Assembly: GCA_963770895.1 (NCBI GenBank)
Contig: CAVYRF010000002.1
Coordinates: forward strand, 2,112,001-2,176,000
Direction of reading: 5' to 3'
DNA length: 64,000 nt
DNA from: an uncultured Acidobacteriota bacterium
Lineage (GTDB): Bacteria > Acidobacteriota > Thermoanaerobaculia > Multivoradales > UBA5704
Positions 7,904 through 41,692 of the stretch are shown here, in pieces. Within the stretch, counting starts at the first letter, position 1. Every line of letters starts with the position of its first letter. The position numbers and the translations under genes were made by a program. The notes beneath the pieces are model-generated. The model searched no databases and was not told where the DNA came from. It worked only from the letters and a program-made list of their open reading frames with translations.

Positions 7904-8157
7904 TCCTCGCCTGAAGAGAACCGACCCGCTTGCGCCTCGTCCACGACGCGGCGCAGGGCGTTAGGCAGCGATTTCGCTGACGCGGAATCGCTGCTCCTGC
8001 CACGACCGGCCGCATCCTGATCTTGAGCCTTACGTTGTTCCAGAAAGCGCTTTGCGCGATTCGCTACGATTGCGCCTGCGTGCGGTATCCGTCCGTCCCT
8101 CCGCCGGCACCTTGCACTACAGTATTGGGCGCGTTTCATCTCACGGGAGAGCCTGTG

Positions 8158-23100: not shown

Positions 23101-26100
23101 TGGCGAACGGCGGCGCGATGGGCCGCGTGGCGCCGGGCGATGCGCGCCAGGAGCTGCTGGCCGGCATGTTCGCGGAGCTGCTGGGGCTGGCCCCGGAGCG
23201 CTTTGGCATCCACGACAGTTTCTTTGCCCTGGGCGGCCACTCGCTGCTGGCGACGCAGCTGGTGTCGCGGGTGCGGCGGGCGTTCGGCGTGGAGCTGCCG
23301 GTGCGGATCGTCTTCCAGCATCCGACCGTCGCCGGCCTGGGCGGCGCCATCGCCGGTCTGGACGCGCCAGCGGCGGCGCCGCCGCTCGGGCCGCGGCACG
23401 GTCCGGGGCCGGCGCCGCTGTCGTTTGCGCAGCAGCGGATCTGGTTTCTCGATCGCCTCGCCGGCGGCGCCGACCACTCCTACAACATCCCGGCGGGCCT
23501 GCGCCTGGAGGGGTACCTGGACGCGGCGGCCATGGCGCGAACGCTCGGCGCCATCGCCCGCCGTCACCAGGTGCTGCGCACGGTGTTCGTCGAGACCGCG
23601 GCCGGACCGCTGCAGGTGGTGCGCCCGGCGCCGGCGGCGGCGCTGCCCATCCCGCTGGTCGACCTGGCCGCCCTGGCGGCGCCGGCGGCAAGGGAGGGCG
23701 AGGCGGCGCGGCTGCTGGCTGCCGAGGCGCGGCGCCACTTCGACCTGGCGAGCGAGCCGCCGCTGCGCGCCTCGCTGCTGCGCCTGACGGCGCGGGAGCA
23801 CCACCTGCTGGTGACCCAGCACCACGTCGCGAGCGACGGCTGGTCGCTGGGGATCCTGGTGGGCGAGCTCGCCGCTATCTACGGCTCGCTGGTGGCCGGC
23901 AAGCGGGATGCCGTCGTCAGCGCCGCCCGCCTGCCGGCGCTGCCCATCCAATATGCCGACTTCGCGGTCTGGCAACGCGATTGGCTCGCCGGTCCGGTGC
24001 TGGAGCGCGAGCTGGCCTGGTGGCGGCGGCGACTGGCCGGCGCGCCGGCGCAGCTGGATCTGCCGGCGGATCGGCCGCGGCCGGCGGTCAAGAGCGGGCG
24101 TGGCGCGGCGTGCCCGGTCGAGCTTTCTCCGAGCGTGGGCGCGGCGCTCGCCGGCGCCGGCCGGCGCCAATCGGCGACGCTCGCCATGGGGCTCCTGGCC
24201 GGCTTCGCGGCGCTGCTGGGCCGTCACGGCAACCAGCGCGACCTGTCGCTCGGCATGCCGGTGGCGGGCCGCAACCGGCTGGAGATCGAAGGCCTGATCG
24301 GTTGCTTCGTCAACACCCTGGTGCTGCGCGTCGACCTCGCCGCGGCGGCGACCTTCGGCGGCTTGATGGCGCAGGTGCGGGAGTCGCTGCTGGACGCCCA
24401 GCTGCACCAGGATCTGCCGTTCGAAAAGCTGGTCGAAGAGCTGGAGCCGGGCCGCAGCCTGGCGGCGGCGCCGCTTTTCCAGGCGCTGCTCACCGTCCAG
24501 AACGCCCCCCTGCCGCCCCTGGTTCTGCCCGGTCTGACGGCGACGCCGCTGGCCTCCCCCGCGGTCACCGCCGCCAAGTTCGATCTCAGCTTGAACCTGG
24601 GCGAGACGGCCGCGGGAGGGGTGAGCGGCCTGCTCACCTACAGCACCGACCTGTTCGACGGCGCCACGGCGGTGCGGCTCGCCGCGCACCTGGCGGCGCT
24701 GCTGGCGGCGGCGGCGGCGGCGCCGGCGGCACCGCTGGGCGAGCTGCCACTGCTGTCTGCCGCGGAGCGCCACCAGCTGCTGGCCGAGTGGAACGACACC
24801 CCGACCGCGCAACCGGCCATGGCGGCGGGCTGCCTGCACGAGTTGGCGGCGTCGTGGGCGGCGGCGGAGCCGGACGCGGTGGCGGTGGTCTGCGAGCGCG
24901 AGGCGCTCAGCCGCGGCGAGCTGGACCGCCGCGCCGGGCGGCTGGCGCGCCGGCTGCGCGCGGTGGGCGTCGGCCCGGAAGAGGTGGTGGCCATCCGGCT
25001 GGACCTGGGGCTGGATGCGATCGTCGCCGTCCTGGCGACGCTCAAGAGCGGCGGCGCCTACCTGGCGCTCGACGCCGATCTGCCGGCGCAGCGCTGCGCG
25101 GCGATCCTCGCCGACGCCCGCCCGCGCGCGCTGCTCTGCCGCGGAGCGGCGCCCGCGGGGTGCGCCGTCCCGGTGATCGATCCGGCCGCCGTCGATCCCG
25201 GCCCGGCCGCCGGCAGCGACGGCGACGGTGACGGCGATGCCGCCGGCGCCCGTCTGCCGGCGGTCGATCCGGCCAACCTGGCCTACGTGATCTACACCTC
25301 GGGTTCGACCGGCACCCCGAAGCGCGTCGGCATCGAGCACCGGCAGGTCACCGCCTACCTGCCGGCGGTCCTGGCGCGCCTGGGGCTGCCGCGGCAGGCG
25401 CTGCTGTCGCTCCACCAGACGCTGGCCGTGGACGCGCCGGCGACGCAGCTTTTCGCGGCGCTGTGCTACGGCGCGGCGTTGCAGCTGGTGGTGCGCGAGC
25501 GCGCGCTGGACCCCGAGCGGGCCGCCGACTACTTTGCCGCACAGCCGGTCGATTTCCTGAAGATCGCTCCCAGCCACCTGGGTGCCCTGCTGCTGGGAAC
25601 GCGGCCGCGGGACATCCTGCCGCGGCGGCTGACCATGGTGGGCGGCGAGGCGATCTTCTGGCCGCTGGCCGAGCAGATCGCGGCGCTCGCAGGCGGCGGC
25701 CGGCTGCTCAATCACTACGGTCCGACCGAGGCCACGGTGGGGGTGCTCACGCACTGGGTGGAGGTGCCGGAGGGCGCGCGGCCGGGCGTGGGCAGCGTCC
25801 CCATCGGGCGGCCGCTCGCCAGCGTCCGCGCCTACGTGCTGGACGCCCAGCTGCTGCCGGTCGCGGCAGGGCTCGCCGGCGAGCTCTTCATCGGCGGGCC
25901 GCAGGTGACGCGCGGCTACCTGGGCCGCGGCGACCTCACGGCGGAGCGCTTCCGCCCCGATCCGTGGGCGCCGGAGCCCGGCGGCCGCATGTATGGCACC
26001 GGCGACCAGGTGCGCGCCGGCCGCGACGGCGTCGTGACGTTTCTGGGCCGCACCGACTTCCAGGTCAAGATCCGCGGCTTCCGCATCGAGCTGGGAGAGA

Positions 26101-29100
26101 TCGAGGCGGCGCTGCAGGCGCTGCCGGAGGTGGCGGCGGCGGCGGTTGTGGCGCGGGGCGCGGCCGGCGGCGAGCCGCGCCTGGCGGCCTACGTGGTACC
26201 GCGCCCGGGGACGGCGCCGACAGCCCTGGCGCTGCGGCAGGCTCTGGCCGGGCGGCTGCCCGCGCCGATGGTGCCGCGCGACGTGGTGCTGCTCGCCGAC
26301 CTGCCGCGCACCGGCCACGGCAAGCTCGACCGCAAGGCCCTGCCGGAACCGGCGGCCGAGCCGGCAACCGACTTTGCCGCGGCGGCCGGCGGGCGGCTTG
26401 GGGCGACCGTGGCGACCGTAGGGATCGGGGTGGCGCTCGGCGACGCCGTGGAGCTGGCGCTGGCGGACGCCTGGAGCCTGCTGCTCGGCCAGGCGCCGGC
26501 CAGCCGCGAGCAGAGCTTCTTCGACGCCGGCGGCCACTCGCTGCTGGCGATGCAGCTCGCGGCGCACCTGCGGCGCAGCCTGGGCGTCGAGCTGCCGCTG
26601 CGGGCGCTCTTCGAGGCCCCGGCGTTCGGCGCCGTCGCCGAGCGGCTGCGTCAGGTGGCGGCCGCCGGGACGGGCGCCCAGCTGCCGCCGCTCGCGCCCG
26701 TCGCCGGCCGCGGCACCGAGCTGCCGCTGTCCTTTGCCCAGCAGCGGCTGTGGTTTCTCGACCAGCTGCAACCGGGCAGCGCGGTCTACAACATGCCCTA
26801 TGCGATCGAGCTGACCGGCGACCTCAAGCCGGCGGTTCTGGCGCGCTGCTTTGCGGAGCTGCGCCGCCGCCACGAGACGCTGCGCACGGTTTTTGCCGCC
26901 GCACCCGACGGGCCGCGGCAGGTCGTCCTGCCGGCGCCCCCGTCGGACGGTGGCGCGCTGCCGGTGGTGGACCTGGCGGCGTTGCCGGCAGACCTGCGGG
27001 AGCGCGCCGCGGCGGCGCTGCTTGCCGCCGAGGCCGGGCGCTGCTTCGACCTGGCGCGCGGAACGCGGGCTCCGGCGAGTGCCGGCTGGCCATCGTGGCC
27101 GGCCGGCCTGCTGCGCGTGACGCTGCTGCGCCGCGGCCCGCGCGACCACCTGCTGCTGGCGACCCTCCACCACATCGTCAGCGACGGCTGGTCGCGCGGC
27201 GTGCTGGTCGGCGAGATCGCGGCGCTCTACGGCGCCTTCGCGGCCGGTGCGCCGTCGCCGCTCCCCGAGCTGGCGCTGCAATACGGCGACTACACGCTCT
27301 GGCAGCGCGTCTGGCTGAGCGGCGCGACGTTCGAGCGCGAGCTCGTCTGGTGGCGCGAGCGCCTGCGCGGCGTGCCGCCGGTCGTCGACCTGCCGCTCGA
27401 CCGGGCGCGGCCGGCGGTGGCCGGCGCGCGCGGCAGCAGCCGGCTGCTGGCGCTGCCCGCCGGCTGGTCGGAGTGGCTGGGGCAGCTTGCCCGCGAGCGC
27501 GGCGTGACGCCCTTCATGGTGCTCTTCGCCGGCCTCGCCGGCCTGCTCGGCCGCCATGGGGCGCAGCAGCGGTTCGCCATCGGCAGCCCGATCGCCGGCC
27601 GCCGGCACGTCGAGCTGGAGCCGCTGATCGGCTTCTTCGTCAACACCCTGGTGCTGCCCGCTGACCTGTCCGGCCGGCCGACCTTCGCCGAGCTGCTCGA
27701 TCGCGCCCGCGACACCTGTCTGGGCGCCTATTCGCACCAGGATCTGCCGTTCGAAAAGCTGGTCGAAGAGCTGGCGCCGGAGCGCAGTCTGGCGCACTCG
27801 CCGCTGTTCCAGGTGCTGCTCGTGCTGCAAAACACCCCGCGCCAGGCGATCGACCTTCCCGGCCTGACGCTGCGCTCGCGGGAGGCGGAGACCACGGTCG
27901 CCAAGTTCGACCTCACCTTCGCCTTCGACCAGGCGGGCGAGCAGCTGACCGGTGCGGCGCAGTGGAACGCCGACCTGTTCGACGCCGCGACGATCACGCG
28001 CCTGGCCGGCCATCTCACCGCCTTTGTCGCCGCCGGCGCCGCTGCGCCCGACCGCTGGTTCGCGGAGCTGCCGCTGCTGGGCGCGGCGGAACGGCAGCAG
28101 GTGGAAGAGTGGAACGCCACGGCGTCGGCGCCGCGCGCCTCGGTGGGCCTGGCCGGACTGGTCGCCGCCCAGGCGGCGCGTACACCCGAAGCGGTGGCGG
28201 CGGTTTTCGGCGACCAGGCCCTCACCTACGGCGAGCTCGACCGCCGGGCGGCGGCGCTCGCGGCGGCGCTGGCGGCGCGCGGCGTCGGGCCGGACGTGGC
28301 GGTCGCGCTGTGCATCGCCCCGTCGCTCGACATGGCGGTCGCTGTGCTCGCGGTGCTCGCCGCGGGCGGCGCCTACCTGCCGCTCGATCCGGCCTACCCG
28401 CGCGAGCGGCTGGCGGCGATGCTCGAAGACGGGCGGCCGGCCGTGCTGCTGGCCGCGCCGGATCTGCTCGAGCGGCTGCCGGCGCAGCGGCCGCCCGAGC
28501 TGCCTTGGCAGGACATCGTGCGATCGCCGGCGGCGGCAGCCGCGGCTGCCGGCGGCCACGGACCGGCCCGGGCGCTGGCGACGGCGGCCGGCTTGGGCTA
28601 CGTGATCTTCACCTCAGGCTCGACCGGGCGGCCGAAGGCGATCGGTCTGCCGCAAGGCGCCCTGGTCAATCTGATCCAGTGGCACCTCGACACCCTGCTC
28701 TGCGGCGCGCGCACGCTGCAGTTCGCCTCCCTGAGCTTCGACGCCAGCTGCCACGAGATGTTCGCCTGCTGGTCGTCGGGCGGCACCCTGGTGCTGATTC
28801 CCGAAACCTTGCGGCGCGACGCGCGCGAGCTCGCCCGGCTCTGCGTCGTCGAGACGATCGAAAAGGCCATTCTGCCGGTCCTGGTGCTGCAGCAGCTGGC
28901 CGAGATCTACGCCGAGCCGGGCGCGCCGCTGCCGGTGTGGAAGGAGATGACCACGACCGGCGAGCAGATGCAGATCACCCCGGCGGTCGTCGAGCTGTTC
29001 GAGCGGCTGCCCGGCTGCCGGCTGCACAACCACTACGGTCCCTCCGAAAGCCACGTGGTCACCACCCACACCCTGGGGCGGGAGCCGCGCGAATGGGCCT

Positions 29101-30758
29101 TCCACCCGCCGATCGGCAAGCCCCTGGCCAACAGCCGCATCGAGCTGCTGGGTCCCGGCCTGGACCGGGTGCCGCAGGGCGCGCCCGGCGAGCTGTACAT
29201 CGGCGGCGTCTGTCTGGCACGCGGATACCTCGGCCGGCCCGACCTCACCGCCGAGCGCTTCGTGCCCGATCCCTGGAGCTGTCTGCCCGGAGAGCGTCTC
29301 TACAAGACCGGCGACCTGTCGCGGTACCGGCCCGGCGGCGACATCGAATACCTGGGGCGCCTGGACCACCAGGTCAAGATCCGCGGCTTCCGCGTCGAGC
29401 CCGCGGAGGTGGAGTCGGCGCTCGGCGCGCACCCGGCGCTGGTCGAAACCGTGGTGGTGGCGATGGACGCGCCCGAGGGCGGCAAGCGGCTGGTCGCCTA
29501 CCTGGTCGGCCCGCCTGGCGGCGACCGGCCCGCGGCCGCGGCGCTGCGCGCCTGGCTGGGCGAGCGGCTGCCGCACTACATGTTGCCGGCGGCATTCGTC
29601 TGGCTCGACACGATGCCGCTGTCGCCCAACGGCAAGGTGGATCGCCAGGCGCTGCCGCGGCCGGAAGCGGCAGGGCGCGCGCAGGAGGGACCGCCCGCCG
29701 CCGCGCCGCGCGACCTGGTCGAGCTGCGGCTGGCCGGGGTGTGGCAAGACCTGCTGGGCGCCGGGCCGATCGGTCCCGCCGACAGCTTCTTCGGGCTGGG
29801 CGGGCACTCGCTGCTGGCGGTGCGCCTGATGAACCGCATCGAAGCGGCGTTCGGCCAGCGCCTGCCGCTGGCGGCCCTGTTCGAGAGCCCGACCCTGGAA
29901 GCCCTGGCCGTGCGCCTGCGGCGGGGGGCGCCGCCGGCGCGCCGCGAGCCCCTGGTGCATCTGCATGGCGACGGGCAGAACCTGCCGCTGTTCCTGGTCC
30001 ACCCCGCGGGTGGCAACGTACTTTGCTATTGGCAGCTGGCGCGCGCCCTGGGCGACGACACCCCGGTCTACGGGCTGCAGCTCCCCGATGCCGTGGACGC
30101 CGCGGCCCCGGCGCCGACCGTCGAGGCGCTGGCGGCCCGCTACCTGGAAACGATCAGGACCGTGCAACCGGAAGGCCCCTGCCATCTGGCCGGCTGGTCG
30201 CTCGGCGGTGCGATCGCCTTCGAGATGGCGCGCCAGCTGGACCTGGCCGGCCGCCAGGTCGGCCTGCTGGCGCTGCTCGACAGCTTCGCCCCATCGGCTG
30301 CGACACCGCCGCCTGCCGGCGCCGACCTGGTGCGCCGCTTCGGCGCCGACCTGGCCGGCCTGCTCGGTCAGGGCCGCCCGAGCCAGGCTCCCTTCGACCT
30401 GCCCGACACCGAGGCCGAAGCCCTGGCCGCGCTCGATGCCTACGGCCGCGCCCAGGGCCTGCTGCCGCCGGACCTGGACCGCGGCTCGATCGCGCAGCTG
30501 TTCGCGCTGTTTCGCACCAGCACCGCGGCGCTCGCCGCCTACCGCCCCCGGCCCTACGGCGGCGAAGCTCTGCTCTTCGCCGCCGCCGATTCCAGCGCCG
30601 CATCGCCCGACCGCGGCTGGCAGCCCCTGATCCGCCAGCTGACCGTCCAACCCATCGCCGGCGACCACTACGCCCTGGTCCGCCACCCCGCCGCCGATGC
30701 CATCGCCGCGGCCCTCCGCCCGCTGCTCGCCGCGGTGCGTCAACCCGTCCCGCAATAG
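8158..30758 (+). CDS. Six-module NRPS: ACP-C-A-T-T-C-A-T-C-A-T-C-A(FkbM MT)-T-C-A-T-C-A-T-TE; frameshift at ~20654-20664
   Basis: ORFs 8023..20820 and 20211..30758 join within A4. GVDSL ACP; six HHxxxD C motifs; six (Y/F)TSG A3 motifs; seven GGHSLL T motifs; DVGANIG MT; GWSLGG TE. Start (8155 GTG or 8158 TTG) inferred from GGGAG RBS. Confidence 0.95.
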
Positions 30759-31259: not shown

Positions 31260-31289
31260 GCCTGCCCGCGGAGTCGTCCGCGGGCAGGC
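31260..31289. terminator. GC-rich stem-loop between converging ORFs
   Basis: GCCTGCCCGCGGA-GTCG-TCCGCGGGCAGGC; no clear U-tract on either strand. Confidence 0.5.
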
Positions 31290-31314: not shown

Positions 31315-31479
31315 CTAGTCGCGGATGCAGGGGGTGACGGTGTCGCAGTGGGGATGGGTCTTGGTGCAGAGGCTGCTGGCGGCGCCGGCGGCAACCTTGC
31401 TCAACTGGTCCTGCACGTCGAGCGAGCGGACGGTTTCGCGATGGAGGGAGAATTTCCTGTTCTGCTTGTGAACCTTCAT
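31315..31479 (-). CDS. Lanthipeptide-type RiPP precursor, 54 aa: MKVHKQNRKFSLHRETVRSLDVQDQLSKVAAG-AASSLCTKTHPHCDTVTPCIRD
   Basis: AAGGAG RBS; FxLxRx5L leader motif; Ser/Thr/Cys-rich core with 3 Cys. Confidence 0.8.
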   Translation of the reverse strand: MKVHKQNRKFSLHRETVRSLDVQDQLSKVAAGAASSLCTKTHPHCDTVTPCIRD

Positions 31480-31718
31480 TCACTTCTCCTTTCAAGTGCT
31501 CCGTCAGGGACGGCAACGGCTGCCGCCCGCGGCCGCACCATCGACACGATTCTACAACGATGTCGCGCATATGACAATGTGATTGCCAAGTAATGCCGCT
31601 TCCGTAGCATCGGAGTGCATCGACCATTCTCTGCCAGCACCTTCACTTCCGGCATTGAGCGCCCGGACCTGCGGTGGATCAACCTTGCGTTGCGTCACCG
31701 ATCTGGCACAATCGCCAT

Positions 31719-32339
31719 GTGACTGTCACGCGCTGGGTGCTGCTGCTGCTCCTGCTGCCGATGTGGCTGGTAGCACCGTTCTTCGGTCCGGTGCACTGGA
31801 TCTCTGGTGCCGCCATCGGCGTGGCGCTCGGGCTCTGCGCCTGGGGCAACCGCCGGGCAGGGGGCGGATGGGGGTTCCGCCGCGAAGCGTTGATGCCGGC
31901 GCTGGTCTGGGTCGCGGTGTTCACGGCGCCAGTCGTGGCGGCGGCGCTGCTGCTCGGGCACCAGCTGGGCACCCTGCATGCCAGAGACCAGCTGGCCGCG
32001 CGGTTCCTGCTCCTGCTGGTCTGGGCGTTGGTGCAGCAGTTCATCCTGCAGACCACGGTCCTGCGGGAGGTGCGCAGCGCCTGGGGAGAGCGCACGGCGC
32101 CGGTGGTGGCGGCGGCGCTCTTCGCCCTGCTTCACCTTCCCAATCCCTTCCTCACCCTGGTCACCTTTGTCGCCGGCCTGGGCTGGTGCCGCCTCTACGA
32201 GCGCCACCCCAACCTCATCCCTATCGCGCTCTCGCACGCCTGCGCCAGCCTGGCTGTCGCCCTCGCTCTCAGCCCGGCGATCACCGGCGGCATGCGCGTC
32301 GGCTACGGCTACTTCCTCCACCACGGCGTCTGGCTCTGA
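31719..32339 (+). CDS. CPBP (CAAX/Abi) family intramembrane protease-like protein
   Basis: Multi-TM; LFALLHLPN and ALSH motifs; QQ at the usual EE position. Confidence 0.8.
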   Translation: MTVTRWVLLLLLLPMWLVAPFFGPVHWISGAAIGVALGLCAWGNRRAGGGWGFRREALMPALVWVAVFTAPVVAAALLLGHQLGTLHARDQLAARFLLLLVWALVQQFILQTTVLREVRSAWGERTAPVVAAALFALLHLPNPFLTLVTFVAGLGWCRLYERHPNLIPIALSHACASLAVALALSPAITGGMRVGYGYFLHHGVWL

Positions 32340-32366
32340 GTCGGCGTGGAAGACGGGCGAAGGCGA

Positions 32367-32386
32367 ATTGATATCATGATATCAAT
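32367..32386. promoter_or_regulatory. Antitoxin operator palindrome
   Basis: Perfect 20-bp palindrome ATTGATATCATGATATCAAT ending 5 nt before the antitoxin ATG. Confidence 0.75.
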
Positions 32387-32391
32387 CGGCC

Positions 32392-32640
32392 ATGAGCCAG
32401 ATGGTGGTGCGCCGACTCGATGAGGACGTGAAGCTCAAGCTTCAGAAGCGCGCGCGCCTCAACGGCCGCAGCACCGAAGAAGAGGTGCGTGAGATCCTCC
32501 GTGCTGCGGTGAGGGATGAAAGTGGCATGGACGTGCCGCTCGGCTCCCGGGTTGCCGCCCGCTTCGCACGCCTGGGGCTCAGGGAAGTGATTCCCGAGCT
32601 ACGCGGCCAACCCGCGCAACCCGTTGTCTTCGAGCCGTGA
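32392..32640 (+). CDS. FitA-like ribbon-helix-helix antitoxin
   Basis: MSQMVVRRLDEDVKLKLQKRARLNGRSTEEEVREIL; GTGA overlap with the toxin. Confidence 0.9.
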   Translation: MSQMVVRRLDEDVKLKLQKRARLNGRSTEEEVREILRAAVRDESGMDVPLGSRVAARFARLGLREVIPELRGQPAQPVVFEP

Positions 32641-33056
32641 TCATCCTGGACACCAACGTGATCTCGGTGCTGATGCAGAGCGCACCGGATCCGGTCGTCG
32701 TCAGGTGGATCGATGCGCGACCTCCGGCGTCCCTATGGACGACGGCCATCACGGTCTTTGAGGTCCGCCTGGGACTGGAGGTTCTGGCGTCGGGGCGCCG
32801 GCGACGACTGCTGGAGGATGCCTTCGCCGCGACCCTCGAAGAGGACTTCGGAGGGCGAGTGCTCCCCTTCGACCAAGCTGCAGCGCATGCGGCTGGCCGC
32901 ATCGCCGCAGAACGACGACGCCCCGGCCGCACGGTGGAAATCCGTGACGTCCAGATCGCCGGTATCGCCAGTGCGCGAAGCTCTGCCGTCGCCACTCGCA
33001 ATGTGCGCCACTTCGAAGGCCTAGGCTTGGAAATCCTGGATCCCTGGTCAGCGTAA
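32637..33056 (+). CDS. vapC: PIN-domain toxin (VapC/FitB)
   Basis: MIILDTNVIS...DVQIAGIA...ATRNVRHF...LDPW. Confidence 0.93.
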   Translation: MIILDTNVISVLMQSAPDPVVVRWIDARPPASLWTTAITVFEVRLGLEVLASGRRRRLLEDAFAATLEEDFGGRVLPFDQAAAHAAGRIAAERRRPGRTVEIRDVQIAGIASARSSAVATRNVRHFEGLGLEILDPWSA

Positions 33057-33123
33057 TCGCGGCTCCGAGCGCGGCCGGCGGCGCCCGCGAGGGCGGGCGC
33101 CGCGCAAGGCCGGCTGGCTTTGA

Positions 33124-33759
33124 TCAGTGGCCCGGCGTGGGTGAGCCGGCTGGGCAGGCGGCGGCCGGTGGCGGTACGTCGACGCCCTGCTTCTTGAGGT
33201 GCTCGTAGAAGTAGCCGGCGGCGAACTTGTCGTTGGCCGGGGTGGCCGCGGACCAGACCTGGGAGCAGGCGGCCTGGTCGCACTTGCCGCCCAGGGTGCT
33301 CGCGGCGCCGGTGCAGACCGGGCAGGTGCAGGTCGCCCTGTCCCCCTTGGGTCCGTCGACCTTGCATGGCGCGCCGTAGCACCAGGCCCACTTGGTGGAA
33401 TCGCTGGCGCAGGTGAGCGTGCTGTCCTTGACGTCGAAGGCGTTCGAATACGTCGACATGATCGCCATGCCGGGCTTGGGCGGCGTCGTCTGGCTGCGGC
33501 CCTTCACCGTGCACGCCGCCGGCCCCATGGACCAGCCGTTCTCCACGTTGCAGGCGCATTCGACCCGCGTCGGGTCCGACGTCGGACGGCAGAGCGCCTT
33601 GATGCAGAGCGCGTAGTACCCCTGGCAGAATTGAGCGTCACTGGCTCCCATGCTCGCGTTGCACTGCGGCCGGTCCACCGGCCTGTCCGCCGCCAGCGCC
33701 GGTGCGGCCACCAGGCATCCGATCAGCAACGCCAACATACTTCCCTGTCGCATCGTCAT
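33124..33759 (-). CDS. Secreted Cys-rich protein (16 Cys in mature part)
   Basis: GAGG RBS before ATG 33759; signal peptide ending ALA-AD. Confidence 0.8.
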   Translation of the reverse strand: MTMRQGSMLALLIGCLVAAPALAADRPVDRPQCNASMGASDAQFCQGYYALCIKALCRPTSDPTRVECACNVENGWSMGPAACTVKGRSQTTPPKPGMAIMSTYSNAFDVKDSTLTCASDSTKWAWCYGAPCKVDGPKGDRATCTCPVCTGAASTLGGKCDQAACSQVWSAATPANDKFAAGYFYEHLKKQGVDVPPPAAACPAGSPTPGH

Positions 33760-33949
33760 CCTCCCCTCTGGAGAGCGAGGCGGTCGGTACCGCGCGGGGA
33801 TCGCGCGCCCCGGCCCCACTTCGCCTCCGATACAGGTTTTTGTGACGCTAGCATGGATGACACCGCCCGCGCCCGTCCTGCGTCGTGCGTTGCCTTCGTG
33901 CCGGGAGGCGATAGGATTGTCAAGTCGTACCCCACAAGCGGAGAGTCGC

Positions 33950-35650
33950 GTGGTCCCTGAGCAGTCCCTGTACCGCCTGTACGTCGTCCCCGCGGCCGGC
34001 GCTCCGTTCGAGCGGGCGCTCGACGGCGAATCGCTGGTCGTCGGGCGCGCCGCCTCCGCCGACCTGGTGATCGAGGACCTGTTCCTCTCGCGCCACCACT
34101 CGCGCTTCTTCCGCCGCGGCGACCGGCTGTTCGTCGAGGACCTGGGCTCGCGCAACGGTACCCTGGTCAACGGCCGCGCCATCGCCGAGCCTACCGAGGT
34201 GCGGCCCGGCGACGCGGTGCAGATCTCCGGCAGCGTCCTCACCGTGGCGCGTCCGCTGCCTGCCTCCGGCGCCGCCGGAGGCTTCGCGGGAAGCGACCTC
34301 GGCGGCGACTTTCCCGAGGGCGACGGCACGGTGATGATGGGACGCGACGCGGCGGCGATCTTCCGCCCGGCGGCCCAGCTCCTCGACAGCGCCCCGACGG
34401 CGGTGCACTACGCCGAGCAGCTCAAGATCCTCAACGAGGTCCATCACGCCCTGAGCCGGCCCATCCATCAGCGGGCGCTGCTCGACCTGATCCTGGACCG
34501 GGTGTTCGATCACCTGCGCCCGGAACAGGGGGTGATCTACCTGAAGGGCGCCGACGGCGGCCTCCACCCGCAGGCCAGCCGCTCGGTCGACGACGCCCAG
34601 GACCAGCTGCTGGCCTCGCGCAGCCTGGCGCGCGAGGTCGCCGGCCGCGGCCTGGCGGCGCTGGTGCTCGACGCCCAGACCGACGCCCGCTTCGCCGGCG
34701 CCCAGAGCATCACCCTCTCCGGCGTGCGCAGCCTGCTCGCCGCGCCGCTGCTCGAAAGCGGCGCCGGCGGCACCCTCGGCATGATCGTCCTGGGCTCCAA
34801 GATCACCGTGCGCCAGTTCACCGAGGCCGACATGGAGCTGCTCGTTTCGCTCGCCTCGGTCGCCGCCCTCTACCTGCGCAACCTCGCCTTGGCCGAGGAG
34901 GCCGCCGAGCGCCGCCGTCTGGCCGACGAGCTCGAGCTGGCGCGCCAGATCCAGCTGGCCCTGCTGCCGACGCAGCTCCCCACCCTGCCCGGCTACGACC
35001 TGCACGCCGGCAATCAGCCCTCGCGCGGCGTCTCGGGCGACTTCTACGCCGTCACGCCGCGCCGCGACGGCGCCGAGTGCGTCGTCGTCATCGCCGACGT
35101 CTCGGGCAAGGGCATGGCCGCCTCCCTGCTCACCGCCAGCCTGGAAGCGTTCGCCGCCGGCCCCATCGAGGACGGCCTGGGGGCCGAGGAGATCTGCGCC
35201 CGCCTTTCGCGGCTGCTCTTCCGCCGCACGCCGCCCGCCAAATACGCCACCGCCTTTGTCGGCGTCCTGGACCTGGCGACCGGTGCCTGCCGCTACGCCA
35301 ACGCCGGCCACAACCCGCCGCTGCTGGTCCGCGCCGGCGGCGACGTCGAGCCCCTGGCCGCCACCGGCGTCCCCATCGCTCTGCTCGCCACGGCCGACTA
35401 CACCGCCGCCACCGTCACCCTCGCCCCCGGCGACACGCTCGTCCTCTACACCGACGGCATCGTCGAGGCCACCGACCCCGACGACCAGGAGTACGGCGAC
35501 CAGCGTCTCACCGACCTGGTCCGCCGCCACCGCGCCGACGCCTGCCCCGCCCTCGCCGACGCTCTGGAAGCCGACCTGGAAGCCTTCGTCCGCGGCACCC
35601 CTTTCGCCGACGACCGCACCCTCATCTTGCTACGCCGCTTCCCTGGCTGA
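33950..35650 (+). CDS. FHA-GAF-SpoIIE (PP2C) protein phosphatase
   Basis: VGR...SRHHSR...DLGSRNGT FHA; GAF; SGDFY, ADVSGKG, NAGHNPP, YTDG, DDRT. Confidence 0.93.
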   Translation: MVPEQSLYRLYVVPAAGAPFERALDGESLVVGRAASADLVIEDLFLSRHHSRFFRRGDRLFVEDLGSRNGTLVNGRAIAEPTEVRPGDAVQISGSVLTVARPLPASGAAGGFAGSDLGGDFPEGDGTVMMGRDAAAIFRPAAQLLDSAPTAVHYAEQLKILNEVHHALSRPIHQRALLDLILDRVFDHLRPEQGVIYLKGADGGLHPQASRSVDDAQDQLLASRSLAREVAGRGLAALVLDAQTDARFAGAQSITLSGVRSLLAAPLLESGAGGTLGMIVLGSKITVRQFTEADMELLVSLASVAALYLRNLALAEEAAERRRLADELELARQIQLALLPTQLPTLPGYDLHAGNQPSRGVSGDFYAVTPRRDGAECVVVIADVSGKGMAASLLTASLEAFAAGPIEDGLGAEEICARLSRLLFRRTPPAKYATAFVGVLDLATGACRYANAGHNPPLLVRAGGDVEPLAATGVPIALLATADYTAATVTLAPGDTLVLYTDGIVEATDPDDQEYGDQRLTDLVRRHRADACPALADALEADLEAFVRGTPFADDRTLILLRRFPG

Positions 35651-35667
35651 GTGCCACCGGCGCCGCT

Positions 35668-36516
35668 TCATCGAGCCTCCTCTCCCGGCCAGCCGAAGCT
35701 GTAGCGCAGCACGTCGGCGACCGCGCGATAGCCGATCCGACGGTAGACCGAGTTCGACGTCGGGTTGATCAGCTCGGTGTAGAGGATGCAGCGAACACCC
35801 TGCGCTCTGAGGGCCTGCGACAGGTGCCCGACGCAGGCGCCCGCATAGCCCTGGCCGCGTGCGCCAGGCGGCGTGTAGACGAACTGAATGCGCACCGTCC
35901 CGGCGACCGGCGTGGAATGGGTGGCCATCGAAACCGGGGTGCCGTCGACGTCCCACATCCAGAAGCGGCCGTCCGAAAGCCTGCGATCGACCACCACTGC
36001 CGGCGCATCGCCCAACTCGTCGACCTCGAGGGCGAAGGCCTGGGTCCAGGCAACCAACCGGTCGCGGTCGTCCAGGCCTGCCCGCCGCAGGCATCCGGCC
36101 ACGCCGTCGCGCAGACGCACCGTGGGGCAGTGATAGAGGCGCAGGCCGCTCACCGGCCGCGCCGGCACCTTGCGGCGCTCCGCCCACTGGCCGGCGAAGC
36201 GGGCCGACGTCGCCGCATCGGCATTGACTCCGGGCACGGCGATCTTCGCCTCAGCGACTGCGTCGGCCAGCGCCTCCACCGATTCGTCATCCATCGGGGT
36301 GAGCAGCAGCGGAAAGTCGAGCGGCGACTGAAAGGCCACGCCGGTCACCATGGCGCCGTTGCGCACCACCCAATAGCGCCCCGGCTCGCTGCCTGCCGCG
36401 CGCTCCTGCAGCAGGCTCAGCACCAGGTTGTGCAGCACCGGCTCGGAGGTCAGGTAGCCGTCCGCCGCGGCCAGCACCTGACCGGCGTCCGCGCTCATCG
36501 TCACATTCAAGCTCAT
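35668..36516 (-). CDS. GNAT family acetyltransferase
   Basis: VYTPPGARGQGYA, LYTELINPTSNSVYRRIGY. Confidence 0.9.
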   Translation of the reverse strand: MSLNVTMSADAGQVLAAADGYLTSEPVLHNLVLSLLQERAAGSEPGRYWVVRNGAMVTGVAFQSPLDFPLLLTPMDDESVEALADAVAEAKIAVPGVNADAATSARFAGQWAERRKVPARPVSGLRLYHCPTVRLRDGVAGCLRRAGLDDRDRLVAWTQAFALEVDELGDAPAVVVDRRLSDGRFWMWDVDGTPVSMATHSTPVAGTVRIQFVYTPPGARGQGYAGACVGHLSQALRAQGVRCILYTELINPTSNSVYRRIGYRAVADVLRYSFGWPGEEAR

Positions 36517-36907
36517 CCCCTGATTCTAACGGCGGTCAGGCACCGGCCCAACTGCAGATCGAGCTCCAGCTCTTTGGTACGGCGTTCACGGGGACTGCCA
36601 ACCTGACGAGCGATTTCCTGCCCGCGGAAACGGTGGCGAGTGTCGCCTCGGAGAACCTGTCGGACGGCGGTGACGTTGCTCTTCGGGCAGACCTCCGTTG
36701 CCAGTGTGCATCTGTTTCTTCATGCCAGTGGTTACTTCGAATGTAGCGATGCAAAACGATTTTCTCGGCAAATCCGCGCCGTCGCGGCCTCGCCGATCTG
36801 CTCGGTGCGCCCGGCGCTCAGGAAGCGCATCGCACGAATGCCATAGGTCGATAAGCTTGTGACCTTCGTGGTGAACCTCTATGGTGGATGCAAAAGGAGG
36901 ATCACGC

Positions 36908-37747
36908 GTGCGAAAAATTATTGTTTTCCTGTCCGGAGTGTGTCTGTGTGCAGCGATTGCCGCCGATCGCGCGGCGGCATCTCCAGCCGAAGCCATCCGC
37001 CAGGCGGTGGCCGCAGCGCATCTCAAGCGCGACGGCGCCAAGCCGGAGGCTTGCAGCTTTCTGTCGATCGGCTGCAATCAAACAGTCAACGCGGCGCTTG
37101 GCTCGTCCGGCTGCGCTCTCAGCGACGGCCAGCTGTCGGACCTCTATGCCTTCAATGGCATCACCGGCACCACGGTGACCGCCACGCTCACCAGCGCCGA
37201 TTTCCCACCTTTCCTTGATCTGCTCGATCCGTCGGACAACAGCGCGGGCGACGATGGCGAACCCGTCGTGGCAACGGTGAGCGGAACCCTCTACGCCACT
37301 GGCCAGTGGGTGCTCGGCGTGACCAACTTCAACGAGTTTCTGCAGACGGGCAACTACACCCTGTCGTTGCAGTGCTCGAGCGGCGGAGGCGCCGGCGCCT
37401 GCTCGGCGGACGGCAACACCCTCTGCCTCAACTCCAACCGCTTCAAGGTGACCGCCACCTACAACGCCGGCGCGAGCGGCTCGGGCCAGGCGCATGCCGT
37501 GTCGATGACCGATGACACCGGCTACCTCTGGTTCTTCGCGTCGAACAACGTCGAAACCGTGATCAAGCTCATCGACGGCTGCGGCACCGGCGGCCACTAC
37601 TGGGTCTTCGCCGGCGGGCTCACCAACGTCAATGTCGTGATCACCGTCACCGACACCCAGACAGGCGCCATGAGGACTTACTCCAACCCTCAAGGCACGG
37701 TATTTCAGCCTATCCAGGACACCGCCGCCTTCGCCAGCTGTCCCTGA
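36908..37747 (+). CDS. Secreted protein with PPC-like domain and a LCLN..RF / WFF..NVE..K..DGC / YWVFAGGLTNV C-terminal domain
   Basis: AAGGAGG RBS, GTG start, signal peptide; C-terminal domain recalled as frequent in Thermoanaerobaculia secreted proteins. Confidence 0.82.
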   Translation: MRKIIVFLSGVCLCAAIAADRAAASPAEAIRQAVAAAHLKRDGAKPEACSFLSIGCNQTVNAALGSSGCALSDGQLSDLYAFNGITGTTVTATLTSADFPPFLDLLDPSDNSAGDDGEPVVATVSGTLYATGQWVLGVTNFNEFLQTGNYTLSLQCSSGGGAGACSADGNTLCLNSNRFKVTATYNAGASGSGQAHAVSMTDDTGYLWFFASNNVETVIKLIDGCGTGGHYWVFAGGLTNVNVVITVTDTQTGAMRTYSNPQGTVFQPIQDTAAFASCP

Positions 37748-37845
37748 AGCGGCAGCCGCAGCAGCGGCAGAGTCCGCGCCCGGCCGGCCCGCGTTCGCCG
37801 CGGACCGGCCGGGGCAGCCTCCGGCGTGCTAACTCTCAAGATCTA

Positions 37846-37982
37846 TATAATCTAGACAGCAATTGCTATAAGATAGACTTGTGGCTTAGGCGCAAGCTTT
37901 GGATGATGGCCGAGGTTTCTCCTAAAGGCAGCCGAAGCAACAAGGAAACGCAAGCGCCGTCACCTTCCTTGAAGGAGGGAAC
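37846..37982 (+). promoter_or_regulatory. -10 box and structured 5' leader of the GMC oxidoreductase (riboswitch candidate)
   Basis: TATAAT at 37846-37851; two stems; anti-SD CCTTCCTT adjacent to GAAGGAGG. Confidence 0.4.
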
Positions 37983-39482
37983 ATGACGACAAAGGGATAT
38001 GGGGTGATTGTCATTGGCGCCGGCTCGGCCGGCAGTGTGCTGGTGGGAGAGTTGGCGGCGGCCAGGGCCAGCGTCCTGTTGTTGGAGGCCGGCGGCCCGA
38101 TCGAGGCGTACCCGCAGATCTGGGACCCCAATCAGATCAACTGCCTCTACGACATCTCGGCGATTCACTGGGGATACAAGACCACTCCCCAGGTCAACCT
38201 GGACCAGCGTGTGCTCGACGAGTGGCGGGCCAAGGTGATGGGCGGCTGCAGCTCCCACAACGACATGGTCTATACGCGGGGCGCCCGCGGCGACTTCGAC
38301 GCCTGGGCAAACACCTACGGATGCCCAGGCTGGGACTACGATTCCGTGGCGCCTTCCTTCGACGCCGTCGAAAAGCGGCTCAGGCCCAGGACGACGCAGA
38401 TCAACGGCTTTGGCAAAGCGTTCATCGACACCTGCGTCGACCTGGGGATTCCGTTCAACCCCGACTACAACTCCGGCGGCAGCATGCGCGGAGTGAGCCT
38501 GCTCCAATCGACGATCGAATACAAAGAGGGCTATCAAGCCCCGCGCCGGGTGACCAGCTTCGATCGCTACGTCAAGCCGGTGATGGACGCGCCGAACGTC
38601 ACGGTCGTCGGCGGGGCGCTGGTGACCCGAGTGATCATCGACGCGAAAGGCCGCGCGACCGGCGTCGAGTACGTGGTCGATGGGCGCTCCGAGATTGCCT
38701 CGGCCGGCGAGGTCGTGCTGTGCGCTGGGGCGATCAACAGCCCCAAGATCCTGATGCTGTCCGGCGTCGGCGATCCCAAGGAGCTGGCTCGGACAGGGAT
38801 CCCCGTCGTTGCCGAGATCCCGGCCGTCGGGACCAACATGCAGAACGCGATCATCTTCCTGGCCAACTGGAAGTCCGCTCAGCCGATCAAGGGCCAGCCG
38901 GTCAACGAGGGATGCGCGATCGTGTGGGACAACATGATCGACGACGATCAGCCCATGACCTGCCTCGAAATGATGTGCGGCCAATATACCTGCGATCAGT
39001 CGCCCGCCGAGCTCGAAGGTTTCTATAGCGTCAGCGGCGGCGCCATGCGCCTTCTCAGCAAGGGTTCTGTCACCTTGGCTTCGAACGACCCTGCCGTGGC
39101 GCCGATCATCGATCCCCGTCTCCTCTCGGTGCAGGAAGACTACGATCAGTGCCTGGCCGCGTACTCCCTCATGCTCAAGGTCGGCAACGCTCCCGGCCTC
39201 GCGGACTGGCGCGCCGGGCAGGTCAATCCCGCGCCGGGGACCAAGCCCGCCGATTGGTTGCTGAGCAACATCTACAGCTACAGCCATCCGGTGGGGACCT
39301 GCGCCATGGGGTCGGGGCCGGCGGCGGTCGTCGATCCGGCGACCCTCACCGTGCACGGTCTATCTGGTTTGCGGGTCGCCGACGTTTCGATCATGCCCCG
39401 CATCACCTCCGGCCACACCCAGGGGCCGGCGTTCATGATCGGCCACCGGGCCGCCAGGATGATCCTGGGGCACTCGGGATAA
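37983..39482 (+). CDS. GMC family oxidoreductase (choline dehydrogenase-like)
   Basis: GAGSAG, GGCSSHN, GAINSPKILMLSGVG, HPVGTCAMG, ADVSIMP. Confidence 0.93.
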   Translation: MTTKGYGVIVIGAGSAGSVLVGELAAARASVLLLEAGGPIEAYPQIWDPNQINCLYDISAIHWGYKTTPQVNLDQRVLDEWRAKVMGGCSSHNDMVYTRGARGDFDAWANTYGCPGWDYDSVAPSFDAVEKRLRPRTTQINGFGKAFIDTCVDLGIPFNPDYNSGGSMRGVSLLQSTIEYKEGYQAPRRVTSFDRYVKPVMDAPNVTVVGGALVTRVIIDAKGRATGVEYVVDGRSEIASAGEVVLCAGAINSPKILMLSGVGDPKELARTGIPVVAEIPAVGTNMQNAIIFLANWKSAQPIKGQPVNEGCAIVWDNMIDDDQPMTCLEMMCGQYTCDQSPAELEGFYSVSGGAMRLLSKGSVTLASNDPAVAPIIDPRLLSVQEDYDQCLAAYSLMLKVGNAPGLADWRAGQVNPAPGTKPADWLLSNIYSYSHPVGTCAMGSGPAAVVDPATLTVHGLSGLRVADVSIMPRITSGHTQGPAFMIGHRAARMILGHSG

Positions 39483-39499
39483 GGCGCCGGGTCCTATGT

Positions 39500-41233
39500 T
39501 CACCTGCTGGCTGGAGGGTCGAGCCACTGCCCGGCAGGCAGATTCAAGGTGCAGACGTGGGACAGTCCGTGGGCGGCGGTCCAGCGGTCCACCAGATCGG
39601 GATATTGGGGGGCCTGGGGGTTTTCCAGGTGCCAGCCGGGAGGGGTGAAGCCGCTGTAGCCGTTGACCGTGGGCAGCGTCAGGCGCTCGGCGATCAGCAT
39701 GGCGTCAATCTGCAGCGCGATGGGGCTGGTCGGCCGGAGCGGCGAAGACTGGCGAATCGCAAAGCTCTGGCAGCGCGGGCCCGGGCTGGGAATCGACGCC
39801 AGGCGTGCCAGCTCCTGCTGGCGATGGACGCCATGGGTCCGGGTCAGGTTGACCTCCTCGAAGGCCAGCCAGGCGCTGACCGCGACGATCGCGGCAAGGG
39901 CCAGGCGCCGGCGCGGCTCGCTGCTCCAGGCTGCGCGCGCGGTGATTGTTTCCCAGGCCGTGGAGAGCGCGGCGATCACGACCACCACCATGGCCAGGCT
40001 CAGCTGATATTGAAAGCGGAAGGTCTGACGGATTGCGACGGCGCCGGGCACGATGCGCCAGACCAGGTACCAGAGCGAACCGCTCTGGGTTCGGCAGAGC
40101 AGAGCCCAGGCCGCGAAGATCGACGCCGCGGTCGAGGCCAGCAGCACCGCGCGCAGCTCGCCGCGCCGGCGCGCCAGCCGCTGAGCGCCGGAACAGAGCA
40201 GCACGCAGCTGGCGGCGAAGGCGATGAGCAGGCCGGGCGGCAGGCCGTAATCCCAGCCCACGTTGGCATACCTTGGGTCCAGGCGGCGCATCAGCCAACC
40301 CCAGGCGACGTTGCGAGTGCTGACGTTGAAAAGGTCGCCGAAGGTCATGGCGTTGCGTGTCACCTCGGCGTACGATCGCGCCTGGCCGGCGGCGATGGCC
40401 GGCCCGTAGGTGACGATGAAGGGCGCCAGCGCCAGCGCGGCCGCGGCTCCCAGGTAGAGAATCGATCGCCAGCTGCTGGCGACCAAGGCCAGGTAGCGTG
40501 AGGCCATCCGCCATTGGATCGACACGGCGATGGCTGCCGCGATGGCGGTGAAGAAGAGCAAGAACCAGCCGGTGTAGAAGTCGGAAAAGAGAATCAATGA
40601 AAAGAGGGCGCCGGCCGCGCTCAACCAGGCAGGCGCGCTTGCGGCGCGGCCCGCTCCGGCCTTGGCGCCCTTGACCAGGCACAATAAGAACAGGGGCACC
40701 AGCATGATGGTGTAGGCCTGCGGCAGCACCCGCGAATGCAGCAGGTTGGAAAAAACGCAGAGCAGGGCGCCGAGGATGGCGAAGCCGCGGCCAAAGCCGA
40801 AATTGCGGAGCAGCCCGATCGTCGAGGCATAGCCGACTTGCGTCAGCAGCCAGAGCGTCAGCTCGAACGCGACGTACGGATCGCAGCCAGTGAAGCGGAG
40901 CGCCGAGTACGGCAGCGATTGCAGGAAAAAAGTGGCGGAGTATGCCAGGACGTGCTGGACAGGAAAGAAGAAGGGCGGCGACAGCCAGTCGTCCAGGCCG
41001 CGATAGACGTTGTGCCAGTGTTCCAATAGCGCCAGGGTCAACCGGGCATCGCCGAAGTCGCCGGCGATGAGCTCGCCGCGGGAGACGATGAACTCGCCAA
41101 AACAGAGGCCGCTTGCCACCAGGCTGACAACCACTGCCGCGGCGTAGAAGCCGCCGGTGGACCACTCCCGGCCGCCGCGCTCGCCGCGAAGACACTGGCC
41201 GCCGCGGCCCTGTTCCGACCGACGCTTCGCCAT
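39500..41233 (-). CDS. Polytopic membrane protein, putative GT-C-type glycosyltransferase
   Basis: Many TM helices; GDFGDARL, PPFFFP, PTVNGYSGFTP; GAGGAG RBS. Confidence 0.75.
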   Translation of the reverse strand: MAKRRSEQGRGGQCLRGERGGREWSTGGFYAAAVVVSLVASGLCFGEFIVSRGELIAGDFGDARLTLALLEHWHNVYRGLDDWLSPPFFFPVQHVLAYSATFFLQSLPYSALRFTGCDPYVAFELTLWLLTQVGYASTIGLLRNFGFGRGFAILGALLCVFSNLLHSRVLPQAYTIMLVPLFLLCLVKGAKAGAGRAASAPAWLSAAGALFSLILFSDFYTGWFLLFFTAIAAAIAVSIQWRMASRYLALVASSWRSILYLGAAAALALAPFIVTYGPAIAAGQARSYAEVTRNAMTFGDLFNVSTRNVAWGWLMRRLDPRYANVGWDYGLPPGLLIAFAASCVLLCSGAQRLARRRGELRAVLLASTAASIFAAWALLCRTQSGSLWYLVWRIVPGAVAIRQTFRFQYQLSLAMVVVVIAALSTAWETITARAAWSSEPRRRLALAAIVAVSAWLAFEEVNLTRTHGVHRQQELARLASIPSPGPRCQSFAIRQSSPLRPTSPIALQIDAMLIAERLTLPTVNGYSGFTPPGWHLENPQAPQYPDLVDRWTAAHGLSHVCTLNLPAGQWLDPPASR

Positions 41234-41423
41234 CCAGGGTTCTCCTCAGTCCAGGTCCGCGCGAATCGCCAGGGGAGTATATTCGCGGCCGCTCTGGACG
41301 GCGCGCTTCTGGCGCGTTGATGGAGCCGCGAGGCACAGGTATAGAGGATGGACTGCCGCTGTGCCGCGCAGATCCGCGCGGCGGCGGGCGCCCTGAAAAC
41401 GGCCTCGACCATGGAGACGTGAG

Positions 41424-41597
41424 ATGAAAAAGAACGTCAGGAAGCTCCAGCTCAATCGCGAGACCCTGCACTTCCTCAGGTTCACGGACGTGACCGGCGG
41501 CGCCACCGCGACGGTCTGCTCCAGGATTTGCGGCGTCACCGACGGCGGCGGCGGCGTTTGCACAGGAGCCCATTGCACAGGAGCCGATTGCAACTAG
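41424..41597 (+). CDS. Lanthipeptide-type RiPP precursor, 57 aa: MKKNVRKLQLNRETLHFLRFTDVTGG-ATATVCSRICGVTDGGGGVCTGAHCTGADCN
   Basis: GGAG RBS; LxLxRx5L leader; double-Gly; core with 5 Cys and 6 Ser/Thr. Confidence 0.85.
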   Translation: MKKNVRKLQLNRETLHFLRFTDVTGGATATVCSRICGVTDGGGGVCTGAHCTGADCN

Positions 41598-41692
41598 CAG
41601 AGGATGTCGGGTGAACCACGGCGACGGCGGTGAAAGCCGCCGCCGCCGCGCCCCGAGGTCCCACCGCCGTTGCCCTGCAACGAGCGCCCGTC

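Follow-up and report, generated by a model that had tools for sequence, protein, structure and literature searches.

Two short genes, designated open reading frames (ORFs) A and B, lie in a 64,000-nucleotide stretch of the genome of an uncultured Acidobacteriota bacterium of the class Thermoanaerobaculia (positions 2112001-2176000 of contig CAVYRF010000002.1, hereafter C2). The whole of this stretch is referred to as the window. ORF A and ORF B are probably stand-alone, single-gene units of a dispersed family of at least 89 class I lanthipeptide precursors matured by LanB and LanC. The genome (G000 in the comparisons below) comprises 8.16 Mb in three contigs, with a G+C content of 71%. An initial annotation of the window had postulated a genome-wide precursor library matured in trans by a remote synthetase, and this idea is supported by the 89 or more dispersed copies and by distant LanB and LanC genes, the computational checks proposed with it all agreeing. 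Its description of an orphan system holds locally, as the window contains no such enzyme, and fails genome-wide, where LanB, LanC, and other Lan enzymes are encoded elsewhere.

Both genes encode fewer than 60 amino acids and stand on opposite strands, 9.9 kb apart, as first described (Table 1), and their translations confirm a common leader followed by different Cys/Ser/Thr-rich cores. The leader reads KFSLHRETVRSL...KVAAG in ORF A and KLQLNRETLHFL...DVTGG in ORF B, with A as the next residue in each. The two have in common the motif K(F/L)xLxRET(V/L)xxL and an (A/G)G end, and their cores (AASSLCTKTHPHCDTVTPCIRD in ORF A and ATATVCSRICGVTDGGGGVCTGAHCTGADCN in ORF B) are unrelated. Each product has the layout expected of a LanA precursor, namely an N-terminal leader and then a core with Cys and at least as many Ser/Thr as Cys residues. 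The AG and GG leader ends are of the double-glycine type at which C39 peptidases are predicted to cleave, and a C39 ATP-binding cassette (ABC) transporter is encoded in the genome. The exact ORF A and ORF B proteins both form singleton clusters at 90% identity among 15 billion proteins.

The leader recurs throughout the genome. A six-frame search with the regular expression [LFIVM]x[LFIVM]x[RK]E[TS][LIVM]xxL, a check of the kind that the initial annotation had proposed, returned 76 matches, compared with 5 for the reversed motif and 4 for the reversed genome. Seventy-two of the 76 lie at the N-terminus of a short ORF, no more than 20 residues from the start codon. A profile hidden Markov model (HMM) seeded with these 72 ORFs extends the family, at E ≤ 1e-3, to at least 89 ORFs in 80 loci, seven of which hold two or three copies. 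A second model, built from an alignment of 32 family members (A1), gave 96 matches. When ORF A and ORF B were left out and a leader HMM of 70 other genomic copies was searched against 108,811 six-frame segments, ORF A scored 42.2 bits (E 2.8e-10) and ORF B 32.3 bits (E 3.5e-7), the seeds having been chosen by a regular expression that both ORFs also fit.

The leader consensus, about 29 amino acids long, is MKK..(K/R)(K/R)LxLxRETLxxL....L..(A/V)A(G/A)(G/A). Its Glu is conserved in 86 of 89 members, its Thr in 82, and its three Leu in 77, 82, and 70, and the last two positions are G or A in 85 and 78 members, respectively. The cores are hypervariable, with a median length of 24 amino acids and a composition of 18% Cys, 15% Thr, and 8% Ser. 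At least two Cys occur in 84/89 cores, and 85/89 combine at least one Cys with a Ser+Thr count no lower than that of Cys. Nearly all cores are unique, since similarity to the nearest paralogue has a median of 0.25 and exceeds 0.6 in two members only. One near-identical paralogue pair differs by 7 synonymous and 6 non-synonymous codons, too few differences for a test of selection.

Only one NCBIfam family, NF038153 (lant_leader_L1a, the class I lanthipeptide leader domain, with a curated cut-off of 22 bits), matches ORF A or ORF B at E ≤ 10. The same family has 43 matches in the genome at E ≤ 10, three of them above the cut-off (28.5, 28.3, and 27.5 bits). At E ≤ 10, the leaders match no Nif11 or NHLP leader model, and a Pfam search of ORF A, ORF B, and six other family members gave no meaningful match.

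The members carry the marks of independent genes. An ATG start is found in 84/89, and a Shine-Dalgarno-like (SD-like) site precedes 78/89, compared with 141/1408 random ATGs (10%). Mean G+C at the first, second, and third codon positions (GC1, GC2, and GC3) is 0.53, 0.53, and 0.83 for the family, with a GC3 of 0.89 for long genes. ORF A (0.55/0.44/0.89) and ORF B (0.52/0.53/0.83) have codon-position G+C of the coding type, the values for 2480 long genes being 0.73/0.53/0.89. Hairpins 3′ of family genes are stronger than those after other genes (mean -33.0 versus -28.0 kcal/mol; Mann-Whitney P = 2.8e-8), and the 70 nt downstream of ORF A have a folding energy of -44.6 kcal/mol. Flanking genes are co-oriented with family members in only 40-46% of cases, with median gaps of 248 and 202 nt. 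The SD sites, hairpins, and strand pattern are signals of independent genes. A search for sigma-54 sites, sigma-70 sites, and enriched 8-mers upstream of the 89 genes yielded no common promoter, the only enriched words being the SD-containing AAAGGAGA and GAAAGGAG. Two sigma-70-like sites were found in the region of ORF A, against a mean of 0.0 over 50 shuffles, the evidence being a consensus match only (Table 1); the same pattern search found none upstream of ORF B. A survey of sequencing runs returned eight, six of them containing part of the window, with no RNA run among these.

The family extends well beyond this genome, while individual members turn over. The leader family is present in all nine other species of the genus (1-68 copies each) and in 20 of the 24 further genomes from the taxonomic family. 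Among 200 other genomes of the phylum that are at least 90% complete, eight have any match, and many copies occur only in G025 (at least 32) and G150 (16). Leaving out one of the eight, the unpublished genome G182 with its lone match, gives 7/199. A profile search of protein databases found 42 relatives at E ≤ 1e-5 among 976 candidates, which, where a source gives a name, are all 'hypothetical protein' except one 'natural product precursor', and one relative carries a precomputed PF28317 annotation. At E ≤ 1e-5, neither ORF A nor ORF B has an orthologue in the nine other species of the genus, where ORF B has one 47% match. A protein from another metagenome, P0033, is 75% identical to ORF A. 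By eye, 18 of the 22 core residues match, and the second half of the leader differs, a pattern which suggests that the core is under selection.

These data also bear on whether the ORFs are decayed copies or chance open frames that are not expressed. The lack of orthologues of ORF A and ORF B within the genus would agree with such an origin, which is nevertheless extremely unlikely given the SD-like sites, ATG starts, coding-type GC3, terminator-like hairpins, and conserved leader columns. The excess of regular-expression matches over the 4-5 of the null searches, the core conservation in P0033, and the presence of the family across the taxonomic family also speak against it.

The initial annotation had recognised no local maturase, and a scan of the window with six Pfam families (PF04738, PF14028, PF05147, PF13575, PF02624, and PF04055) likewise found no match to LanB, LanC, LanM, YcaO, or radical SAM proteins. 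The search elsewhere in the genome that it had called for recovered lanthionine enzymes. A single full-length LanB, with both Lant_dehydr_N and Lant_dehydr_C, adjoins a divergently oriented LanC (Table 1); the pair thus stands in the same genome as the precursors. The closest relatives of LanB with solved structures are the lantibiotic dehydratase 5ehk (163.7 bits) and NisB 4wd9 (89.1 bits), and those of the LanC are 8byk and NisC 2g02. Genes for chorismate synthase, RNase II, a type IV pilus ATPase, and an M23 peptidase surround the lanB-lanC pair, which has neither a precursor nor a transporter nor a protease as a direct neighbour. LANC_like matches number 14 in total, and about nine are lone LanC proteins besides the one adjacent to LanB. 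Two LanM and two kinase-LanC (LanKC/L-like) proteins are also encoded. An exporter of 1195 amino acids combines C39, ABC_membrane, and ABC_tran domains and lies beside two HlyD genes and a LanC; its presence fits the GG/AG leader ends.

From sequence we infer expression of the genes and the following biochemical steps. The sole full-length LanB would recognise the common leader and dehydrate Ser and Thr residues of the core through glutamyl-tRNA-dependent glutamylation followed by elimination. The adjoining LanC, possibly together with the roughly nine lone LanC paralogues, would then attach Cys thiols to these dehydro residues, closing thioether rings. The C39-peptidase ABC exporter, with its HlyD partners, would cut after GG/AG and export the peptide, so that one enzyme set could yield about 90 different ring-containing peptides.

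A precursor sub-group with the leader KK(L/M)RIxxETLLPL has cores with zero or one Cys and His-rich tails (Table 1). Two of its members lie about 146 nt from a lone LanC, and these are among the best NF038153 matches. A LanC adjoining a Cys-free substrate is odd.

The link between the leader and LanB comes from other genomes. Leader, LanB, and LanM searches were tabulated across 41 related genomes, with a strong LanB defined by E ≤ 1e-80. The leader family occurs in 25 of them. A strong LanB accompanies the family in 23 of these 25 and occurs in one of the other 16, the figures for LanM being 18/25 and 3/16, respectively, and the family thus tracks strong LanB better than LanM; because the 41 genomes are kin and shared descent inflates the comparison, the LanB co-occurrence is a pattern and not a statistic. 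LanB occurs without LanM in G018 (37 copies, 100% complete), G022 (35 copies), and G008 (29 copies). Adjacency was surveyed in the flanks, up to 8 kb long, of 80 LanB-homologue loci from named public records. In 23 of the 80, one or more flanking ORFs carry this leader, and several of them abut LanB, for example at L107, L116, and L144. The surveyed loci belong to Acidobacteriota, Myxococcota, Actinomycetota, and Verrucomicrobiota, and their records include Thermoanaerobaculia, other Acidobacteriota, Holophagales, Archangium, Cystobacter, Myxococcus, Kofleriaceae, Actinomycetota, and Chthoniobacteraceae.

It is also conceivable, though unlikely, that the family consists of double-glycine bacteriocin-like peptides, exported and cleaved by a C39 ABC transporter and disulfide-stabilised or linear, with no lanthionine chemistry. 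Leaders ending in GG, AG, or GA (70/89), nine Peptidase_C39 matches in the genome including the full C39-ABC gene, Cys-rich cores, and the absence of a Lan enzyme within 10 kb on either side of most copies would all suit such peptides. They would leave unexplained why the sole curated family matching is a class I lanthipeptide leader, why strong LanB follows the leader across the related genomes, and why the leader abuts LanB in other phyla. The position of four copies within 320 nt of a LanC and a Ser+Thr count at least equal to that of Cys in 88/89 cores likewise argue for lanthionine chemistry.

Several observations weigh against maturation of the family by LanB and LanC. A BLASTP comparison of ORF A with ORF B gave no alignment at E ≤ 100; the pair is not significant by itself, and the reality of the likeness comes from the wider genomic family. 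Against NF038153, ORF A (15.3 bits, E 0.017) and ORF B (14.5 bits, E 0.03) score below the curated cut-off, and three family members are without any Cys. ORF A and ORF B stand apart from both lanB and lanC: LanB is 3.0 Mb away, and even the nearest LanC about 0.55 Mb. Across the family, the distance to a Lan enzyme is 2 kb or less for only 4/89 precursors and 10 kb or less for 6/89, leaving 83/89 more than 10 kb away, with a median of 194 kb. Since the precursor nearest to LanB in this genome is 16 kb off, the LanB link draws on other genomes and on co-occurrence among non-independent kin. The flanks of most close Thermoanaerobaculia LanB loci are devoid of precursors, and in G005 (68 copies, 84% complete) and G024 (27 copies, 96%) the LanB matches are only weaker ones or fragments. 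A LanM gene stands 3.5 kb from one family member, an ABC transporter separating the two. The predicted complex fold of LanB residues 1-800 with ORF A scored 0.52, compared with 0.01 for the best of three controls; its runs share at least 36% of contacts, and the partner has a predicted local distance difference test (pLDDT) value of at least 39. Calibration had shown that 58 of 80 solved complexes and 2 of 110 mismatched pairs attain the mark; at scores of 0.60 or less, only 7 of those 80 complexes and both mismatches do so. The fold lends weak support to the pairing, and this weakness counts on the negative side. As a solved NisB structure, 4wd9, which we take to hold the nisin leader, is in the PDB, the pass may reflect prior exposure of the prediction model to that structure.

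The proximity of one member to LanM recalls prochlorosins, in which a LanM matures a precursor library, and maturation of the present library by one of the two LanM proteins would be a ProcM-like class II system. Two LanM genes in the genome and the occurrence of LanM in 18 of the 25 family-bearing genomes would agree with this. However, the two LanM genes are each abutted by a precursor of their own, 68 or 70 amino acids long, with an unrelated IRAW(R/K)D...LP.(N/H)PA leader and a Cys-containing C-terminus (Table 1), and these loci are typical class II clusters, distinct from the dispersed family. Seven genomes with the family have no LanM match (G018, G022, G008, G027, G040, G002, and G017), and three with LanM lack the family (G014, G034, and G036). 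The leaders, moreover, match neither Nif11 nor NHLP models, and the combination of such a leader with a cognate LanM that characterises prochlorosin-type systems is not found; genomes with 29-37 copies show no LanM. A ProcM-like origin is therefore very unlikely. Judged from sequence, the remote enzyme is most likely LanB/LanC and not one of the LanM proteins, and the system would accordingly belong to class I.

The surroundings of the 89 genes, taken to 4 kb, show no clear enrichment of any neighbour family. Recurrent-partner candidates were rejected at background level: ADOP-type MacB/FtsX permeases (7/53 near a precursor), ABC transporters (1/15), HlyD, tetratricopeptide repeat (TPR) proteins, and non-ribosomal peptide synthetases (NRPS; 6/70 near precursors versus 7.2 expected). 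Two neighbours are nominal only, uncorrected for 11 tests: sigma-54 activators (5/17, P = 0.02) and S15 peptidases (3/4, P = 0.004). Maturation by an unrecognised enzyme, whether from a family outside the search or wholly novel, would make the LanB association indirect. Such a maturase would find room in the fact that LanB action is itself deduced, in the 31 radical SAM genes and one YcaO gene of the genome, and in additional LanB_N-only and SpaB_C-only proteins. It is improbable in view of the lack of an enriched neighbour family, the direct adjoining of leader and LanB in other genomes, and the radical SAM genes themselves, of which three, counted from coordinates, have a precursor no more than 5 kb away, roughly as many as chance would give. 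The LanB_N-only protein corresponds to the glutamylation domain and the SpaB_C-only protein to the elimination domain, and no precursor lies within 12 kb of either.

Three of the four S15 X-Pro dipeptidyl-peptidase genes in the genome stand on the same strand as a precursor and no more than about 300 nt from it. They may be leader-trimming peptidases, or their positions may be due to chance.

Around ORF A and ORF B lie two NRPS genes, a CPBP/Rce1-like protease, a SpoIIE-type phosphatase, a GNAT acetyltransferase, a GMC oxidoreductase, a Gfo/Idh/MocA-glyoxalase fusion, and sugar-modifying enzymes. The NRPS pair contains condensation, adenylation, peptidyl carrier protein (PCP), FkbM methyltransferase, and terminal thioesterase domains. 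CPBP/Rce1-like proteases often accompany bacteriocin loci. As a family-wide partner this protease was rejected, since it has no paralogue in the genome. Secondary-metabolite genes are very abundant, with 70 NRPS-like gene calls genome-wide. Duplicated MacB_PCD/FtsX permeases of about 800 amino acids, which we take to be the 'ADOP' type typical of Acidobacteria, have 53 paralogues genome-wide.

Table 1. Features of the ORF A and ORF B region (window positions) and of other loci in the genome (positions on contigs C1 and C2).
Feature	Position	Strand	Description
ORF A, 54-aa precursor	31315..31479	-	ATG start; 32-aa leader ending AG; 22-aa core with 3 Cys and 6 Ser/Thr
Shine-Dalgarno AGGAG of ORF A	31486..31490	-	6 nt upstream of ATG
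Sigma-70-like promoter match of ORF A	31549..31577	-	TTGTCA, 17 nt, TAGAAT; 10/12; about 70 nt upstream
G+C-rich stem-loop 3′ of ORF A stop	31261..31289	-	stem of about 13 bp; likely terminator, without T-run
ORF B, 57-aa precursor	41424..41597	+	ATG start; 26-aa leader ending GG; 31-aa core with 5 Cys and 6 Ser/Thr
Shine-Dalgarno GGAG of ORF B	41413..41416	+	7 nt upstream of ATG
G+C-rich stem-loop 3′ of ORF B stop	41620..41647	+	70 nt downstream: -40.5 kcal/mol
NRPS gene 1	8023-20820	+	4265 aa
NRPS gene 2	~20817-30758	+	up to 3515 aa; end at 30758, about 560 nt from stop of convergent ORF A
CPBP/Rce1-like intramembrane protease	31674-32339	+	PF02517, 38 bits; divergent from ORF A, 195 nt away
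Full-length LanB, 1177 aa	C2:5180050-5183583		Lant_dehydr_N 550 bits and Lant_dehydr_C 236 bits; sole full-length copy; 3.0 Mb from window
LanC adjoining LanB, 536 aa	pair at C2:5.178-5.184 Mb		divergent from lanB
C39-ABC exporter locus	C2:2.967-2.976 Mb		exporter with two HlyD (C2:2.970-2.976 Mb) and LanC
LanM near one family member	C2:4307702-4310992		3.5 kb from family member
LanM-adjacent precursor	C2:4307447-4307653	-	abuts its LanM
LanM-adjacent precursor	C2:276212-276424	-	abuts its LanM
LanB_N-only protein, 925 aa	C2:4507910-4510687		
SpaB_C-only protein, 358 aa	C2:3339409-3340281		
KK(L/M)RIxxETLLPL sub-group	C1:1579906-1581435		
KK(L/M)RIxxETLLPL sub-group	C2:2707932-2709301		
KK(L/M)RIxxETLLPL sub-group	C2:5020187-5020345		
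S15 peptidase gene	C1:258203-260053		
S15 peptidase gene	C1:653258-655249		
S15 peptidase gene	C1:859132-861279		

Lanthipeptide precursors, GG-type class I leaders, and one-enzyme dispersed libraries are each known already. To our knowledge, the well-studied one-enzyme dispersed lanthipeptide libraries are all class II and cyanobacterial. The closest parallel is with prochlorosins and SyncA peptides of marine picocyanobacteria, where one class II enzyme (ProcM or SyncM) serves dozens of genome-scattered precursors with a conserved leader and hypervariable, largely species-specific cores. The family described here differs in that the implied enzymes are separate LanB and LanC proteins of class I, rather than a bifunctional LanM, and in that its leader is of the LxLxRETL...GG type (NF038153) and not Nif11/NHLP. 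The host, too, belongs to a soil Acidobacteriota lineage with an 8 Mb, 71% G+C genome, 89-96 precursor copies, and about nine extra LanC paralogues.

Closer in chemistry are the class I systems of Bacteroidetes, such as the pinensin family and PedA of Pedobacter lusitanus, which likewise have a basic N-terminus, LxLx(K/R)x5L, a GG end, and LanB with LanC. They belong to a phylum other than that of the present family. Copy number here is an order of magnitude above that of Bacteroidetes class I clusters. The assignment of LxLxKx5L to class I lanthipeptide leaders, on which the initial annotation had relied, is borne out in the sections of Walker et al. (2020; PMC7268733) drawn on here, which describe LxLxKx5L with Gly-Gly as a class I leader and a C39 protease as often present in such Bacteroidetes systems. 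The same paper places Bacteroidetes precursors at most seven genes from lanC, a limit set by the range of its RODEO search (PMC7268733), whereas most precursors in this genome lie more than 10 kb from Lan enzymes. Nisin-type systems are described there as compact operons whose precursors, one or a few in number, have an FxLD-type leader (PMC7268733). The LanB encoded here resembles NisB (of the NisB/NisC pair) and MibB in having both dehydratase domains, but unlike nisin-type operons, its lanB and lanC stand amid housekeeping genes, with no adjoining precursor, transporter, or protease. The combination of about 90 dispersed class I precursors with one LanB and about ten LanC proteins was not found in a literature search whose scope ended short of subscription journals and supplementary tables, and related families may be among those tabulated in the supplements of Walker et al. 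(2020).

More broadly, this soil Thermoanaerobaculia lineage could harbour a class I combinatorial factory, a proposal that we hold tentatively, at slightly less than even confidence. Such a factory would pair one tolerant, leader-guided LanB with a panel of about ten LanC proteins, among which cyclase labour would be divided, and 17-96 fast-evolving, species-specific, individually transcribed precursors per genome. If so, it would be the first LanB/LanC equivalent of the ProcM system, and at least as large. Natural one-enzyme, many-substrate lanthipeptide libraries underlie ProcM/SyncM peptide engineering. A tRNA-dependent LanB would, on this proposal, be able to be as permissive as ProcM or SyncM, and about 90 leader-compatible scaffolds with about ten cyclases would be available for testing what sets ring topology. 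Genome mining limited to a few genes around lanC would miss almost all precursors in such lineages. The finding would also bear on the role of hypervariable peptide libraries in slow-growing soil bacteria.

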